Of a DNA stretch of 64,000 nt, positions 1,142-28,686 are shown in pieces. The stretch is from Endomicrobiales bacterium (lineage in GTDB: Bacteria > Elusimicrobiota > Endomicrobiia > Endomicrobiales > CAWCFT01). Below the pieces are notes generated by a model that was given only the letters and a program-made list of their open reading frames with translations, was not told the origin of the DNA and did not search any database. Location: positions 32,001-96,000 of the forward strand of contig CAWCFT010000006.1 in the NCBI GenBank assembly GCA_963794945.1. Reading direction: 5' to 3'. The position numbers and the translations under genes were made by a program. How positions within the stretch are numbered: position 1 is the first letter of the stretch; each line of letters opens with the position of its first letter.

Positions 1142-2431
1142 TCAGAATACTCTCCGGAAGATGAAAGGAACGTTCTTGAAATGCGAGTTTAAGTCGAACG
1201 TCTTCCTGATCTCACCTTCGGAAAGGTAGTTTGTTATTTCTTTGTCTGCGGCGACGGCGCTCTGTAGCGACGTGCCCAAATTGCGGGCGGCGAAAGCCGC
1301 GCGCTGTATAAGTTCGTAAGCCTTCTCCCTGGAGAGGCCCTTATCAACGAGAGCGAGCAGGAGCGCGCCGGAAAATATCACGTCCTGTGTTTTCTCGAGG
1401 TTCTTCTTCATGTTCTCGGGGTAAACCACGAGGCCCGTGAGTATTCGGTTCATCCGTTCTATCATGAAATCCAGTGCAATCGACGCATCAGGCAGAAGCA
1501 CGCGCTCGGCTGACGAATGGCTTATGTCCCTCTCGTGCCACAGCGCCACGTCTTCCATGGCGGTCACGGCGTAGCCACGCAGAAGGCGGGCAAGGCCGCA
1601 GATGTTCTCCGACATTATGGGGTTCCGCTTGTGCGGCATGGCGGACGAGCCCTTCTGACCTTTTGTGAACGGCTCTTCCGCTTCCTGCACCTCGGTGCGC
1701 TGTAGGTGGCGTATCTCGACAGCTATGCGCTCAAGCGAGCTGCCGGCTATGGCGAGGCTCGCCGCAAATGAAGCGTGCCTGTCCCTCGGGACTATCTGGG
1801 TCGAAACAGGTTCTGGTTTGAGGCCTAGCTTTTTGCAAACGTACAATTCAACCTTGGGGCTTAAGTGAGCGAACGTGCCCACCGCGCCGGAGATCTTTCC
1901 GTAGCTTACGGTCTCGCCGGCTTTTTCCAGCATCTCTTTCGCCCTTTTTATTTCTGAATACCACGAGGCAGCCTTGAGCCCGAACGTTATGGGTTCCGCG
2001 TGCACACCGTGCGTGCGGCCCATCATGGGCGTGAACTCGTATTTTTTCGCGAGAGCTTTTATCGGGATAAGGAGTCTGCTCATACCCGCCGAGAGAAGCT
2101 CGCATGACTGTTTCATCTGGACGGAAAGCGCCGTGTCCAACACGTCGGATGAGGTCATCCCTAAATGAAGGAATCGCGCCTCAGGGCCGACCGATTCCAC
2201 CACCTGCGTGAGGAAAGCTATAACATCGTGCTTTACCGTAAGTTCTATCTCGTTGATTCTCTCTATATTTATTTTCGCTTTTTTGCGTATCTTGGCAACA
2301 GCGGATTTCGGCACCGCGCCCATCTTAGACATCGCTTCGGCGGCAAGTATCTCCACTTCAAGCATCTGCTTGAACCTGTTCTCTTCCGACCAAACCTGAG
2401 ACATTTCTTGTCTCGTATAACGCGGAATCAT
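1142..2431 (-). CDS. purB: Adenylosuccinate lyase
   Basis: MIPRYTR start, HLGMTSSD, GRTHGVHAEP, GSSAMPHKRNP signature. Confidence 0.97.
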   Translation of the reverse strand: MIPRYTRQEMSQVWSEENRFKQMLEVEILAAEAMSKMGAVPKSAVAKIRKKAKINIERINEIELTVKHDVIAFLTQVVESVGPEARFLHLGMTSSDVLDTALSVQMKQSCELLSAGMSRLLIPIKALAKKYEFTPMMGRTHGVHAEPITFGLKAASWYSEIKRAKEMLEKAGETVSYGKISGAVGTFAHLSPKVELYVCKKLGLKPEPVSTQIVPRDRHASFAASLAIAGSSLERIAVEIRHLQRTEVQEAEEPFTKGQKGSSAMPHKRNPIMSENICGLARLLRGYAVTAMEDVALWHERDISHSSAERVLLPDASIALDFMIERMNRILTGLVVYPENMKKNLEKTQDVIFSGALLLALVDKGLSREKAYELIQRAAFAARNLGTSLQSAVAADKEITNYLSEGEIRKTFDLNSHFKNVPFIFRRVF

Positions 2432-2443
2432 TACAACCTCCAG

Positions 2444-2478
2444 AAGCTGTAAGTTATAAGCTTTAAGCTGTAAGAAAA
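2444..2478. repeat. Heptamer array arm (TAAG-NNN)x5 downstream of four-helix-bundle gene
   Basis: aagctgt aagttat aagcttt aagctgt aagaaaa. Confidence 0.9.
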
Positions 2479-2484
2479 ATCAAT

Positions 2485-2838
2485 TCACGGCTTCAGTTTC
2501 TTTTCCAATCCTGTTATCATCCTACCAATCTCTTCACATTCAGCATTAAGTCGCTCAAAATCTTTCTTCTCAATATAATTCAGATCCTTGCTTAATATTA
2601 AATGATATTTTGTTTCTTCAAGAGAAGTTTCGGCAATGTTTAGAAAATGAATAAACTCTTTAGTGCTATTTTTTTTACATCCTTCTACAATATTGGTAGG
2701 AATTGAGCTCGCAGATCGCCTGACCTGCGAGACAATACCAAACTTCTCTTCTTCGGGAAATCTCTTTGTAATTGTATAAATAGCTAACACCAAACTATGC
2801 GCTTTTTCCCAAACTTTAAGATTTTTAAATATTGCCAT
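2485..2838 (-). CDS. Four helix bundle protein (TIGR02436 / 23S rRNA IVS protein / Avd-like fold)
   Basis: FKNLKVWEKAH..YTITKRFPEEEKFGIVSQVRRSASSIPTNIVEG..F..FLNIAETSLEETKYHL family motifs; visibly more AT-rich than neighbours. Confidence 0.93.
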   Translation of the reverse strand: MAIFKNLKVWEKAHSLVLAIYTITKRFPEEEKFGIVSQVRRSASSIPTNIVEGCKKNSTKEFIHFLNIAETSLEETKYHLILSKDLNYIEKKDFERLNAECEEIGRMITGLEKKLKP

Positions 2839-2852
2839 TTTAATATCAGATA

Positions 2853-2942
2853 TAAGCCGTAAGTTTTAAGCTATAAGAAAAATCTAAATCTTTATGGGCT
2901 TTTATTTTTGACTTTTCTTACAGCTTATAGCTTACCGCTTAA
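2853..2942. repeat. Heptamer inverted-repeat element
   Basis: taagccg taagttt taagcta taagaaaa ... ttttctta cagctta tagctta ccgctta; last unit contains purN stop. Confidence 0.92.
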
Positions 2943-3527
2943 AGCCTGCCGTTAATAATTTTAAGTATAGCTTCGGGATAAAGCTTGTGTTCTACTTCCA
3001 AAACCCGCTCCGCCAATGTTTCCGGCGTATCGGCCGCAAGCACCGGTACTTTCATCTGCGCCACAATATTGCCGTGATCGTAATGTTCGTCAACCCAGTG
3101 AACAGTGGCGCCGGATTCCTTCTCTTTAGCGGCGATAACGGCTTCGTGAACAAAATGGCCGTACATCCCTTTGCCCCCGTACTTGGGCAGAAGCGCGGGA
3201 TGGATGTTCACTATCTTGAAACTGTTTATAAGCCCGGGCTCAAGCTTCAAAAGATAGCCTGCCAGGCAGAACAAGCTCAACCCTGTGTTCAGTCAGCCTA
3301 TTTTTTATCTCTTCGCAGAAATCCCCTGCATCAAGATATTCTTTCCTGTCGATAAACACGGCCGGTATATTGTGCTTAACGGCCCTCTGAAGGCCGTACG
3401 CGTCTATCCTGTTGGATATGACTACCGCGACTTCAGCCTTGCCTTTGAGGATGCCGAACCCGCAGGCGTCTAATATCGCCTGAAGGTTGCTTCCACCGCC
3501 CGATATCAAAACTCCGAGCTTTACCAT
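2939..3527 (-). CDS. purN: Phosphoribosylglycinamide formyltransferase (frameshift near 3280, probable sequence error)
   Basis: LISGGGSNLQAI in 3240..3527; LAGYL, NIHPALLPKYGGKGMYG, SGATVHWV in 2939..3280. Confidence 0.93.
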
Positions 3528-4483
3528 TTATACGAGTTCCACGCCTTTTTTGCCTTTTTCTACGGACCCTATTATTATTGAGCCTTTGAGGTGTTTGAGA
3601 GTTCTCTCAGCGGCCGACGGGCGTACTATAACCGCCATGCCGATACCCATGTTGAGCGTCCTGTATATTTCCTTATCAGGCACGTTCCCTTTGTTCTGTA
3701 TGACGCGGAATATCTCCGGCACGTTCCATGATCTTTTGTTTATGGCGACCTTGCAGCCTTCCGGCACAATTCGGCCGATCTTATCGTAGAAACTGCCGCC
3801 GGTTATGTGTGCAATACCAGTGATAAGGGGTAAGCTGTAAGGGGTAAGTAAAGACAAAATCTCTTTGACATATATTCTGGTTGGAGCAAGAAGCTCTTTG
3901 GAGTATTTCTTCAGTTCTTTTGTCGAAAATACCTTACGTATAAGCGAGTAGCCGTTCGAGTGCGGGCCTGATGAAGGCAGCCCTATTACTACGTCGCCCG
4001 GGTGCATCTTTTTGCCTGTTATCTCTTTTCCCTTCTCCAGGGAACCCACCGCGAAACCCGCGAGATCGTATTCCCCGGGAGGATAGAAACCCGGCATCTC
4101 GGCTGTCTCGCCGCCTATGAGTGCGCAGCCGGAAATATCACAGCCTTTTTTAATGCCGGATATAACATTTTCGGCAAGGTTGACATCAAGCTTTCCACAG
4201 GCGAAGTAGTCTAAGAAGAAAAGCGGTTTAGCACCGCAGCAGATTATGTCGTTAACGTTCATTGCCACTAGGTCTATACCCACGGTGTCGTGCTTATTTA
4301 AAAGGAACGCTATTTTGAGCTTGGTCCCGACGCCGTCCGTAGAGCTTACGAGGTTATATTTCGTGCCCGCCAGTGGGAATGCCCCGCCGAATCCGCCGAT
4401 CTTGGGAAGTTTACTCTTCACCGCCGCACCAGCTCGTTGCCCGCGTCGATGTTTACTCCGGCCTTTCTATAGGTGACCTTCAT
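3528..4483 (-). CDS. purM: AIR synthetase (frameshift near 4425)
   Basis: ATG 4483 gives MKVTYRKAGVNIDAGNELV; then GGFGG, STDGVGTK, GIDLVAMNVND, GGETAEMPG, HSNGYSL, AHITGG. Confidence 0.95.
3821..3852. repeat. Heptamer array arm embedded in purM coding sequence
   Basis: tga taagggg taagctg taagggg taagtaaa, encoding LLTPYSLPLI on minus strand. Confidence 0.8.
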
Positions 4484-4501
4484 TATAACTCCTTAATTTA
4501 T

Positions 4502-4603
4502 TAGCTATAAGCTGTAAGCTTTAAGCTATAAGAAAAATCTTATAAATACATACGCTTACGATTTTTGTCTTTTCTTACAGCATATAACTTATAGCTTATA
4601 ACT
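4502..4603. repeat. Heptamer inverted-repeat element between pyrE and purM
   Basis: tagcta taagctg taagctt taagcta taagaaaa ... ttttctta cagcata taactta tagctta taact. Confidence 0.92.
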
Positions 4604-4606
4604 ATT

Positions 4607-5182
4607 TTACTTCCTGCTTCCCGGTTTTATTGGCGACCCGCCTTCCTTACACATCGGGCACTCTTCTGCTTTGTAGCTTTTTACTTCTAGGCTGAGCAGC
4701 GACGAGCGCGGCACGCCAAAATCAACTTTTCCGCCGGAGCGGTCAACAAGGGACGCGACCGCGACGATCTCAGCGCCCAGCGGCTTTATAGTGTCTATTA
4801 CTTCTCTTGTTGAAAGGCCCGTAGTTATCACGTCTTCTACCACGAGGCACTTCTCGCCTTTTTCAACACTGAAACCGCGGCGGAGTGTGAGCTTTCCGTC
4901 AACCCGCTCGCAGAATATCGCGCGGCAACCAATCTGCGCCGCCACTTCCTGGCCGACCACGATACCGCCTAAGGCCGGTGAAACCACAACATCTATGTCC
5001 GGGACATCCTTTAATATCTTGTCTGCGAGAAGCGCGGCGAGCTTTTCCGCTTCCGCCGGATGCTGGAGTATCAACGCGGACTGGAAATACGTGTCGGAAT
5101 GGAGCCCGCTTGAGAGCAGAAAATGTCCGCTCAACAACGCGTTGTTCTTTTCAAATAATTGTTTTACTTCTGAATCTTTCAT
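4607..5182 (-). CDS. pyrE: Orotate phosphoribosyltransferase
   Basis: GHFLLSSGLHSDTY, VVEDVITTG PRPP motif. Confidence 0.96.
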   Translation of the reverse strand: MKDSEVKQLFEKNNALLSGHFLLSSGLHSDTYFQSALILQHPAEAEKLAALLADKILKDVPDIDVVVSPALGGIVVGQEVAAQIGCRAIFCERVDGKLTLRRGFSVEKGEKCLVVEDVITTGLSTREVIDTIKPLGAEIVAVASLVDRSGGKVDFGVPRSSLLSLEVKSYKAEECPMCKEGGSPIKPGSRK

Positions 5183-5204
5183 TATATCCCCTTTCGCTAG
5201 ATAT

Positions 5205-5292
5205 CAGCTATAAGCTGTAGGCTTTAAGCTATAAGAAACTTCGATTTGCGACTTTTATTTTCTTACAGCTTATAACTTATAGCTTACAACTA
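5205..5292. repeat. Heptamer inverted-repeat element between pyrF and pyrE
   Basis: cagcta taagctg taggctt taagcta taagaaa ... ttttctta cagctta taactta tagctta caacta; overlaps pyrF stop. Confidence 0.92.
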
Positions 5293-5946
5293 TTTTGTTG
5301 ATGCTTTTTCTATTTCTTCCGTCATGATTTTTGCTGCTTCCACTGGGTCAACCGCTTCTATCACAGGCCGGCCAACAACTATAAAGTTCGCTCCGGCCCT
5401 TATCGCGGCGGCAGGGGTGGCTATTCTTTTCTGGTCGTGCTTGTCTTCGTTCGCCATCCTTATGCCGGGCGTTATTACGCCAAACTCGCTGCCGCAGGCT
5501 TTCTTAATATCCTCTATTTCGTGCGGTGAAGATATCACGCCGTCCATGCCGGACTTTTTCGCAAGCAGCGCCCGTTCGCGCACTACCACCGGGTCGACAG
5601 GCTGGCTGGTGAGCACCGTGACCGCCCATAACCTCGGATGATTCGGCACAAACGCTGCCTCTTTCATCATGATCTCGCCGCCAGCTGAATGGAGGGTTAG
5701 GCTGTAAACACCTAGCTCCGACGCCGATTCAACGGAACGCTTGACAGTCTGCGGTATGTCGTGGAACTTAAGGTCAAGAAAAACCTCGTTGCCGCCCTGT
5801 TTTATTTGTTTAATAAGTTCCGGGCCTTCCTTGAGAAAAAGTATCGGGCCCACCTTGAATATGTCGACGTACGGCGAAAGTATCTCAACCAGGTACATTG
5901 CCCTGTCCTTATCTTTGACGTCAAGCGCTACTATCATCTTTTTCAT
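5290..5946 (-). CDS. pyrF: Orotidine 5'-phosphate decarboxylase
   Basis: IVALD, FKVG, FLDLKFHDIPQT, ITPGIR, VVGRP; ATG 5946 with GGAG upstream. Confidence 0.96.
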   Translation of the reverse strand: MKKMIVALDVKDKDRAMYLVEILSPYVDIFKVGPILFLKEGPELIKQIKQGGNEVFLDLKFHDIPQTVKRSVESASELGVYSLTLHSAGGEIMMKEAAFVPNHPRLWAVTVLTSQPVDPVVVRERALLAKKSGMDGVISSPHEIEDIKKACGSEFGVITPGIRMANEDKHDQKRIATPAAAIRAGANFIVVGRPVIEAVDPVEAAKIMTEEIEKASTK

Positions 5947-5966
5947 AACTGCTCCCGGGAAATAAT

Positions 5967-6108
5967 TCAAAAATCAAACATCAAATATAAAAATTATAGA
6001 TAATATCCCCAGCAAAACTAATGATTGTTTCTATTGTTTTTTCTTGTTTGCGAATTAATTTATAAATATTGGCCTGTTTTTGATCTTTGATTTTTAATAT
6101 TTGATATT
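5967..6108. repeat. Second-type heptamer inverted repeat (TCAAANA)n
   Basis: tcaaaaa tcaaaca tcaaata taaaaat ... tttttga tctttga tttttaa tatttga. Confidence 0.75.
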
Positions 6109-6112
6109 GCCT

Positions 6113-8161
6113 TTACTTTACGGGATGCTTTATTATATAGTCCGTAACCGCGAGCGCGGATTTGAAATGCTTCAAAAGTTTCTCGTGTTCGGCGTCCGGC
6201 TGGGCTGGCTTTAAGAGCCTTCTTGACGACTGGTCCCACACATAATAAGACACAACGTTATTCTCAACGAAACAGCGCAGCGCCCTGTCCTTCGACATCA
6301 CGAGCCCGTCAACATTGAAGGCTATGTGCTTTGTATTCTTATCAAGCATGTCCCCGCCTAGCGAAGCATACTGTTGCCCGGACAGCGAGAGGTTGTAAAG
6401 CGTAGCCATAATATCCAGGTGCGAGCCGAACGTGTCCTTGTCTATATCGCGGGGCTTTAGGCTTTCGGGAATATAAAGGTAGAACGGCACACCGTCCAAG
6501 TCAAGGTAGCGTTCTTTGGGGTAATCGAAAACGCTCCAGAAATTGTGGTCGCCCGTTACGGCGATTATCGTGTTCTTGCCGAGCGACGAGGCTTTTATCC
6601 TCGATATAAGTTCGCCCAGCTTATTGTTTGAGTACTGATAAGTCTCGAACCGCATCTTAGCGAGCTTCATGTCGCCCGTGATGTCTTTCCGCAGCTCTGG
6701 CGAAATATTGAGCGGCAGAAGCTTGTAGTCCGCCGGCAGCGAATAAGGCGGGTGGTTTGTCGTTGTCATCGTGAATATGAACTTGGGTTTGCCGTTATTT
6801 TTCGAGAGCCTGTCGTATATGTGCTGGAAAAGATACTCGTCATAGACACCCCACTGGTTCTTCGGGAATCTCGGGTCCATAGAACCCGCGCCCTCTGCTG
6901 AATCAAAACCAAGGTTTCCGGCGAACATGAATACGTTCCTCCAGCCGGCGTTGCCTCCGTAAAGGAATATCGTCTCATAACCAGCCCGCTTGTAAGGCAC
7001 CGCTGCGCCCGTGAAATAGTAGTTGTAGGCGAACTTCGACTGCGTAACGGCCTTAGCGGCCGGCCTCTTTGGCATGCTTAATATGGCCGTTTCTATACTG
7101 CCGATCGTTCCGACATCTCCGGAAAGAAAGTTATAGAACACTGTATCAGAATCGAAATGTTTCTTCAGCTCGCCCATGACGTTGAACTCAGGCGAATTGT
7201 AATGCAGAAGGTCAGAGCCGAAACTCTCCATCATTATGAATATTACGTTGGGCCTTGTCTTTTCGATCGCAACGCTCTTTTTTGTCGTTCTTATCACGCT
7301 CTCCTGAAGGGCTTCCTTGTTGAGCTTTGAAGCGGGAACGTCCAGAAAATCCGAGAATGCGCGCACCGGGTCGTCGGAATAGCCAACCTGTTTGGAAATA
7401 TCGTAGCTTCCGTTCTCTTTCATTCTGGCCTCTAAGGCTTCCTGAAAGGTATATATTCCGTTAATAGACACTTTGTTTATGAAAATGTCCGGCGATATCT
7501 CGGCGTCCATCGTACCCAGCGGGAAAAGCCCGAAACCGCCCCTCGCTGCAATGACGTTGCAGGCCAGAAGCCCGCCGAGGAAAAAGAATTTTATCAGGAA
7601 CGGGTACCGCTTGTGGCTGTCGTGCTCGAGATCTACCTGGTTTGTGAAATGGCTTGTTATAAAATAAACGATCGAGATGAGCACTAGGAAAATAAACGAA
7701 ACCAGCGGCACGTTATAGTTGTCCGCTATAGTGGAAAAAAGCGCCTTAGTATCGTCTTCCAGAACACCGAAAATGATTATGTTTATGTGGTTCTTAAAAT
7801 AAGAGAAAAAGCCAAAGTCCACACAAAGCAGTATAAAAATAAATGAGAACATAAGAACGTAGTAGGCTTTTGCCGCGGACAACCAGAATCTGAAAACTTT
7901 TGTGCTCCCGATGGCGGAAACTACTATCAGCGTCAAAACTACCAGCATGTTGACATAAGCTACTACACCCAGGTCAAACCTCACACCCATATAAAAAGCT
8001 TTAAAAACGTATATCCAGAGTCCACTTGATGTTTTCAAGCCGCCGTAGTATACGAAGAAGACAAGTCTAAAGACGGACATAAGAAGAAGGAACACCGCGT
8101 TCGCTAGTAAAAGTTTTTTAACCGAATCTATCACGGCCCCGAAAGGAAGGTATTTGTTCAT
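6113..8161 (-). CDS. LTA synthase family / sulfatase-like membrane protein
   Basis: N-terminal TM helices, PNVIFIMMESF, WGVYDE, TTTNHPPY, TGDH. Confidence 0.88.
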   Translation of the reverse strand: MNKYLPFGAVIDSVKKLLLANAVFLLLMSVFRLVFFVYYGGLKTSSGLWIYVFKAFYMGVRFDLGVVAYVNMLVVLTLIVVSAIGSTKVFRFWLSAAKAYYVLMFSFIFILLCVDFGFFSYFKNHINIIIFGVLEDDTKALFSTIADNYNVPLVSFIFLVLISIVYFITSHFTNQVDLEHDSHKRYPFLIKFFFLGGLLACNVIAARGGFGLFPLGTMDAEISPDIFINKVSINGIYTFQEALEARMKENGSYDISKQVGYSDDPVRAFSDFLDVPASKLNKEALQESVIRTTKKSVAIEKTRPNVIFIMMESFGSDLLHYNSPEFNVMGELKKHFDSDTVFYNFLSGDVGTIGSIETAILSMPKRPAAKAVTQSKFAYNYYFTGAAVPYKRAGYETIFLYGGNAGWRNVFMFAGNLGFDSAEGAGSMDPRFPKNQWGVYDEYLFQHIYDRLSKNNGKPKFIFTMTTTNHPPYSLPADYKLLPLNISPELRKDITGDMKLAKMRFETYQYSNNKLGELISRIKASSLGKNTIIAVTGDHNFWSVFDYPKERYLDLDGVPFYLYIPESLKPRDIDKDTFGSHLDIMATLYNLSLSGQQYASLGGDMLDKNTKHIAFNVDGLVMSKDRALRCFVENNVVSYYVWDQSSRRLLKPAQPDAEHEKLLKHFKSALAVTDYIIKHPVK

Positions 8162-16132: not shown

Positions 16133-16149
16133 AATATTAATCCCAGTAA

Positions 16150-16213
16150 TAAGCCGTAAGCTGTAAGTTATAAGAAGACTTTTCTTACAGCTTACAACTT
16201 AAAACTTATAACT
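16150..16213. repeat. Heptamer inverted-repeat element with minimal loop upstream of purF
   Basis: taagccg taagctg taagtta taagaag ac ttttctta cagctta caactta aaactta taact. Confidence 0.92.
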
Positions 16214-25636: not shown

Positions 25637-25652
25637 TTACAACCTCCAGTTG

Positions 25653-25720
25653 TAAGCTATAAGAAATAAGCTATAAGAGTGATTTTTCTTACAGCTTAAA
25701 AACTTATGGCTTATTGCTTA
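25653..25720. repeat. Heptamer inverted-repeat element between dcd and guaB3
   Basis: taagcta taagaaa taagcta taaga ... ttttctta cagctta aaaactta tggctta ttgctta. Confidence 0.88.
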
Positions 25721-28584: not shown

Positions 28585-28609
28585 TCTCTCCTCCGCGTTA
28601 CTTCAGGGA

Positions 28610-28686
28610 TAAGGGGCAAGGGTTAAGGGGTAAGTAAATTCTTTTTTGCTATTTCACTTACCGCTTACCGCTTATCACTTACCGCT
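28610..28686. repeat. Heptamer inverted-repeat element (G-rich subtype) between nrdR and nrdJ
   Basis: taagggg caagggt taagggg taagtaa ... ttcactta ccgctta ccgctta tcactta ccgctg. Confidence 0.88.

Follow-up and report, generated by a model that had tools for sequence, protein, structure and literature searches.

A four-helix-bundle gene between inward-facing heptamer arms suggests an undescribed bacterial gene-plus-repeat system

In a 64,000-nucleotide stretch of an Endomicrobiales genome (the window), the gene for a four-helix-bundle protein sits between two inward-facing arms made of tandem copies of its own word. Such words are 6–9 bases long, and gene-less pairs and single arms lie elsewhere, at numerous stop/start junctions and within some coding loops. 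The gene has stayed intact at a single locus over long periods. The parts of this arrangement have been published separately, and the architecture joining them is real and widespread; we suggest that it represents an undescribed gene-plus-repeat system, by which puzzling bacterial heptamer repeats could be explained. We judge the chances to be about even that the locus is a long-lived master copy of a REPIN/RAYT-like system, in which a gene and its word have gene-less progeny.

The gene (positions 2485–2838, minus strand; ORF intact) encodes 117 amino acids and lies between purN (TIGR00639) and purB (TIGR00928). Its product belongs to the TIGR02436/PF05635 family, scoring 141.7 bits against TIGR02436 in a profile search (curated cut-off 24) and having the fold of Xcc0516. 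The G+C fraction of the gene is 0.34, against about 0.47 for the contig. Comparison with the orthologue in a relative (G003) gave pN 0.128 and pS 0.82, and the gene is under purifying selection; an NCBI protein that is 79% identical (P0004) is labelled Elusimicrobia. As the original prediction stated, no Shine-Dalgarno motif was seen upstream of the ATG, where start positions in this genome (G000, 86% complete) are approximate since the ORFs come from a rough caller. An Rfam search over 2300–6300 gave no match near the gathering score, just chance microRNA-like ones. Near position 3270, purN is read as two overlapping ORFs (3240–3527 and 2939–3280) related by a one-base frameshift, while the purN of relatives is unbroken; this split may be an assembly error. 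The arms at the junction and in the rest of the window are as follows.

2437–2441, minus strand: GGAGG ribosome-binding motif of purB, which lies within the end of purN where the junction is empty
2444–2483, plus strand: 3′ arm of the cassette, with four TAAG units (2447–2474) and a fifth AG, ending right before the purB ribosome-binding site
2848–2884, plus strand: middle arm of 3′ type (units 2850–2877), a lineage-specific extra that makes the cassette 5′ arm a local hairpin
2878–2916, unstranded: loop of the local hairpin, 39 nt
2908–2945, minus strand: 5′ arm of the cassette (units 2917–2944), whose first TAA (2939–2941) is the purN stop codon
3821–3848, plus strand: single TAAG arm, in frame (LTPYSLPLIT) in a gene that we take from its motif to be purM, replacing a loop of similar length
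4505–4601, unstranded: gene-less TAAG hairpin at a gene junction
5208–5289, unstranded: gene-less TAAG hairpin at a gene junction
5965–6106, unstranded: gene-less TCAAA hairpin; the cognate gene of this word is on contig C8
9091–9118, minus strand: single TAAG arm
16147–16211, unstranded: gene-less TAAG hairpin
25650–25677, plus strand: TAAG arm without a scored partner
28607–28684, unstranded: gene-less TAAG hairpin

The 5′ arm has two potential partners. It can pair across the gene (2908–2945 with 2446–2483; 38 nt, 84%, duplex −43.8 kcal/mol) or locally with the middle arm (2906–2941 with 2853–2888; 36 nt, 83%, duplex −36.6 kcal/mol). The fold of the whole locus uses the far pairing (z −3.7), and the local hairpin folds with z −5.6. 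The original prediction had described this design, an AT-rich gene between purN and purB with inverted heptamer arms able to pair near or far, and in this it holds; it had also taken the downstream arm to be the extra one, which the relatives contradict. Orthologues in G001, G003 and G005 have just one 5′ arm and one 3′ arm about the gene, with no middle arm seen at the equivalent place, and the middle arm in G000 is therefore a later addition.

Periodic inverted flanks are a general property of the family. A search of homologues' flanks, proposed with the original prediction, found cognate inverted arms at 56 of 70 family genes from 41 genomes of the order, compared with 6.7% of non-cognate pairings. 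Here 72 genes were examined and two dropped at contig edges; one of those scored is a partial copy in G001 whose downstream arm is the same as that of another. In other phyla the arms were present at 70 of 79 loci (80 collected, 79 scored) versus 8.8% of non-cognate pairings, and none of 67 control windows in this comparison was periodic on both sides. Periods there are mostly 7, with some of 6, 8 or 9, and the words number in the dozens. At one family gene (L082, on G003:C26) both arms look periodic, with GAAGGAT upstream, yet score only 6; its orientation or word may differ.

The purN-purB junction itself turns over. Among 30 loci, three have the gene, 17 are empty (gap of at most 17 nt), eight carry inserts of 79–183 nt, one has a longer insert and one lacks purN. 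At least five of the eight inserts are periodic arms by eye, several of them of other words, so that both the hairpin-only and the empty states for which a comparison of relatives had been suggested do occur. G001 also has the gene at this junction, its purB being cut by the contig end. The TAAG-armed gene is found between purN and purB in four families, and its proteins group together (starred clade, 98/93) in a tree built from 66 family proteins, elsewhere in which words also track protein clades. One locus in four families and a single supported clade indicate that the gene is an old resident rather than a fresh jump. Vertical conservation at the locus had been named in advance as evidence against a mobile cassette, as had homologues without periodic flanks; the former was found in part (four families, one clade) and the latter was not (56/70 and 70/79). 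Where the TAAG sites of G003 are comparable (four cases), two are empty in G000 and two hold another word; the nearest available genomes to G000 belong to other families.

Away from the gene, the arms are abundant in G000. There are 81 AAG/CTT arrays of at least four at period 7, against 1–4 at periods 5, 6 and 8–11, and a TAAG profile gives 102 matches in the genome compared with 2 in a shuffled genome; the arms are therefore not due to chance, and the gene-less hairpins of the gene's own word that had been noted earlier are plentiful. In all, about 403 arms fall into seven word families, and same-family neighbours within 150 nt form 126 inward pairs and no outward ones, with 151 arms lacking a scored partner. 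Five family genes are present in G000, four of which have cognate inverted arms with a different word each (scores 16–29), and the fifth (on C2) an upstream array only (score 9). Genes for at least two of the seven words (CGAA and GTT) were not found in this 86% complete genome, and no pseudogene remnants were found in its long loops, just the five genes. The 23S rRNA is absent from the assembly.

The placement of these elements bears on whether the protein is a regulator of the host. According to this alternative, the pentamer binds arms that lie at operon junctions, whether in mRNA or in DNA, tunes translational coupling, termination or decay and autoregulates, and the hairpins spread otherwise and are kept for function. 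Such a role was put forward for the TAACTGA repeats by MacGregor 2015 (PMC4679880), and in 85 of the 126 elements the start lies no more than 25 nt past an upstream stop codon, compared with 13% of intergenic bases; 41 of these 85 have a ribosome-binding motif and a start right after, and the cores are conserved in every copy. The stop-proximity figure is, however, partly built in, because TAAG arms themselves make stops, and co-directional junctions are used no more than junction numbers predict (103/126 versus 2254/2836). The sites are moreover not conserved among relatives and are reused by other words, in-frame arms in coding loops fit poorly, and no family gene was found in 21 of the 41 relatives. 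We regard host regulation as an unlikely explanation.

Four full units are present in 61 of 82 TAAG arms, a fifth AG in 66 and a sixth in only 4; all 62 AGCG arms examined in G003 (from 38 regions covering part of the genome) have the fifth AG, in agreement with the earlier estimate of about five repeats per arm. Each of 101 TAAG arms differs from every other, and whole-element identity does not exceed 0.82. Spacers in G003 are drawn mainly from four variants (TTT, TAG, GAT and TAT), and 49 of 62 arms contain three different ones when 33 are expected. The arms are thus reshufflings of a small set of unit variants and not copies of one another. The near-identical dispersed copies of MITEs or insertion sequences were not observed either, with maxima of 0.82 among 37 TAAG elements of G000 and 0.92 among 31 AGCG elements of G003. 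Since G000 has no near-identical pairs, recent copying is not seen there.

Units that would face each other in a hairpin tend to differ. In the TAAG hairpins of G000, facing units match in 6 of 148 cases (15.1±3.5 expected), and in the AGCG hairpins of G003 facing spacers match in 3 of 93 (14.0±3.3 expected); the latter is the cleaner count, that with the flank column set included being 3/124 against 21.7. The seven TAAG hairpins of G003 are too few for the test. The deficit is found for loops below 55 nt (3 versus 8.5; 9 versus 16.5) and is gone at longer loops (16 versus 14.5) and in gene-flanking arms (23 versus 21.2; 25 versus 19.8), loop length being confounded with word family. For TCAAA, which has long loops, the deficit gives p 0.001 by partner shuffle and p 0.14–0.39 by unit permutation. 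Adjacent units in G000 are also seldom identical (TAAG, 2/234 against 13.1 expected; TCAAA, 17/324 against 39.5). Pairing in shifted registers is at chance level, so that the deficit concerns the in-register hairpin alone. Read most simply, this means that the hairpin does form and that perfect copies with short loops are lost. A need for flipped-out bases is a possible basis for the mismatch rule, but the gene's own arms do not follow it. SbcCD was considered as the purging agent and rejected: sbcD was found neither in five array-rich nor in five array-poor relatives (G000–G003, G005, G007, G020, G022, G030 and G033), and was detected in 13 of 14 control genomes.

The original prediction had proposed an mRNA-borne intervening sequence. 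In the fuller form of this model, RNase III would cut the arm stem, as it does in 23S rRNA, and the element would spread via an RNA stage. There is a precedent in Coxiella burnetii, where the 23S intervening sequence (IVS) of 428–444 nt has an S23p ORF in a 28-bp stem with heptamer repeats that is cut by RNase III (PMC4990558). G000 has RNase III, the far pairing is the most stable one, and the gene-flanking arms, as noted, are not depleted of paired units. An arm also lies within 60 nt of 13 of 38 tRNA genes in G000, and the whole cassette seemingly adjoins tRNA-like sequence in G012 and G001. The stems, however, give this proposal no support. Their mismatches are strand-symmetric (G-U 185 versus A-C 157 on the sense strand, p 0.14, not significant) and the folding advantage of that strand is equalled by a composition control, which leaves no evidence for an RNA stem over a DNA one. 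Perfectly paired runs of at least 11 bp are under-represented in short hairpins (10/126 versus 19.9 expected), the reverse of selection for cleavage. A stem is impossible for single arms, including those in frame in genes, and no reverse transcriptase was found in four of five array-rich genomes. We therefore consider excision from mRNA quite improbable. Public reads gave scattered short pieces only on the window, the best run having 0.16 of words; an RNA contig joint from 2482 to 5261, between two arm-bearing places and with 21 letters on its short side, was not taken as evidence.

The abundance of a word is linked, if imperfectly, with the presence of its gene. The four genomes with a TAAG-armed gene have 115, 91, 69 and 53 strict TAAG arrays, the most of the 41 genomes, followed by two with 23 and 11, the other 35 having at most 5. 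For five of six words tested (TAAG, GTAC, TCAAA, GATT and TGRGT), the top genome carries a cognate-armed gene; the TGRGT pattern reads the same backwards, which voids its control column, and GTAC is self-complementary, so that its forward and reverse counts are the same sites. This link is descriptive only and carries no p-value, because the flanks of the genes supplied the word patterns and the genomes are related to one another. There are also exceptions. An AGCG-armed gene was not found by three search routes in G003 (97% complete, 109 AGCG arrays), G004 has 40 TCAAA arrays and no close gene, G018 (GATT) is a further case, and no family member was found in G013 (18 GTAC arrays) or G019 (5 GATT, 4 TAAG). 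Conversely, G001 has a TGAG-armed gene and no strict arrays, and GTAC-armed genes in G001 and G012 are accompanied by just 3 and 2 arrays. These cases could reflect loss of the gene after its word had spread, gaps in the assemblies or cross-recognition.

Such arrays in genomes where no cognate gene was found would be expected if the hairpins spread alone through slippage and recombination, a loop having picked up the gene on a single ancient occasion and carried it ever since. Other DNA is indeed found within loops. That of one TCAAA pair contains an IS200-type transposase gene (G000:C11:109938–110592, with equal-scoring matches on C2 and C8), and two related G+C-rich palindromic inserts of 311–315 nt lie within TCAAA pairs (G000:C2:73224–73594 and C2:74489–74855), forming a second, nested repeat family. 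The arms, however, persist about the gene over many phyla, dozens of words and periods of 6–9, the protein is under purifying selection, arm length matches the oligomer number, and 10 of the 12 genomes with at least 5 arrays of any of the six words are gene-bearing (one simple tract in G016 set aside). We give little credence to a passenger gene.

The match between arm and oligomer comes from the structure of the family. A model of the 117-aa protein (pLDDT 95.8) is an all-helical bundle that superimposes on Xcc0516 (2GSC; Z 21.4, rmsd 0.8) and BT_0352 (Z 16.7), and on the diversity-generating retroelement (DGR) protein Avd (PDB 4DWL and 8UB7; Z 15.3–15.7, rmsd 1.5–1.8), with unrelated bundles reaching at most 13.1. 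The closest solved structures, 2GSC and 2RLD, have five chains each. To our knowledge, no catalytic activity is known or has been shown for the fold. Avd is a pentameric barrel in which every one of the five protomers touches a single RNA stem-loop, flipped-out bases occupying the crevices between protomers (10.1101/2023.10.23.563531). From the five units per arm, the five-chain structures and the Avd-RNA contacts it is a fair inference that one unit is bound per subunit.

For the reading of the locus as a master copy, a mechanism can be sketched from these likenesses. The protein would assemble into a pentamer like that of Avd, each subunit of which takes up one unit of a single arm, the nucleic acid being either single-stranded or a hairpin. 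The pentamer and a host repair or recombination enzyme might then lay down new arms at gene junctions, sometimes singly. Copies with identical facing or adjacent units would be purged as unstable or harmful, leaving the five-unit, regularly mismatched form. A bolder version, which we find doubtful, is that this is a categorically new kind of intragenomic replicator. In it, a non-catalytic pentamer would recognize a five-unit word, and under its direction a host enzyme would write new arms one unit at a time, drawing on a small vocabulary, both at stop/start junctions and in protein surface loops. Paralogues would then be programmable 7-base readers, and one mechanism would lie behind the rRNA IVS, the heptamers of Xanthomonas, Nostoc and Beggiatoa and the ancestry of DGR Avd.

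On the features tested, the locus belongs to none of the IVS, DGR, REPIN-RAYT or MITE classes. Compared with the Coxiella element, it has the same protein family, an ORF within an inverted stem of about 28 bp with tandem heptamers, and a similar size (about 500 nt here), thus sharing the terminal stem of a 23S IVS, but it lies between the protein genes purN and purB and not in rRNA, is accompanied by gene-less pairs and single arms that number in the dozens across the genome, and shows nothing in its pairing that points to the RNA strand. The rRNA IVS represents this same element at one particular site. Avd shares the fold of the 117-aa protein, but at 12% identity and with a score of 46.6 bits to the Avd model NF033474, below its cut-off of 80. 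No match to a reverse transcriptase (PF00078) was found in the 86% complete G000, the neighbours of the gene being purN and purB, and the locus thus lacks the adjacent reverse transcriptase of a DGR.

RAYT genes encode transposases of the HUH type and are flanked by their own repeats, and several REPIN-RAYT systems can share a genome. The likeness to that system lies in a long-resident gene with non-autonomous inverted doublets spread intergenically (10.1101/2021.07.10.451892); here too a resident gene has many gene-less inverted doublets of its own repeat, with exceptions among words and genomes. Unlike RAYT, the protein here is without a known catalytic fold, being an all-helical bundle (the five PF01797 matches in G000 are other genes), and unlike REPIN palindromes, which are conserved and copied whole, the arms each consist of five tandem units drawn in shuffled order from a set of variants.

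Heptamer arrays have also been described in Xanthomonas (GGGAATC) and Nostoc (GGGGA(C/T)T) (PMC4692102), and as the TAACTGA repeats of Beggiatoaceae (PMC4679880). Like the arms here, they favour four units, form convergent pairs (70 of them in Xcc) and lie near a stop codon when on the sense strand and near a start codon when on the opposite one. Read as its reverse complement, TAACTGA is a word flanking family genes at two loci (L174 and L179). No four-helix-bundle gene is named in the searched passages of either paper, and the repeats are interpreted there as quadruplexes or as targets of other regulators; we infer that they may belong to the same system. A published link between the TIGR02436 family and genome-wide heptamer hairpins was not found in the literature covered, which largely excludes subscription journals.

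If correct, these readings would provide a natural ligand, written beside each gene, for a very large family of unknown function, and would join three puzzles, namely the S23p ORF of the rRNA IVS, the heptamer repeats that abound in bacteria, and where Avd came from. Because each gene is paired with a word, binding can be tested directly with paralogues as built-in controls, and a family of small pentamers that each favour a different 7-base word would be attractive as modular readers of nucleic acids. The arms also rewrite the ends and loops of proteins, as at the purN stop and in the purM loop, and in this way contribute to changes in protein sequence.

The purM loop before GIAHITGG is a hot spot for in-frame arms (window 3821–3848; L015, L018 and L052). 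Across 22 genomes in which the loop was found, G000 (TAAG), G001, G006 and G008 have an in-frame arm, each of a different word. The segment is 30–33 residues long in G000, G006 and G008 compared with 29–33 in arm-free relatives, and 42 in G001. Together with the added middle arm, the purM arms suggest that arms may be gained singly or be left singly after deletion. Several further high-scoring single arms are in frame in G000 genes; low-scoring ones detected alongside them may be chance. The paralogue on C8 (G000:C8:20315–20790) has two 5′-type arms, one in frame as its N-terminus. Sister genes were also compared by their neighbours, a noisy comparison that we used loosely. One other gene (G000:C1:343712–344110), presumably for a GxxExxY-motif protein, has AT-rich repeat-like flanks of a different pattern.
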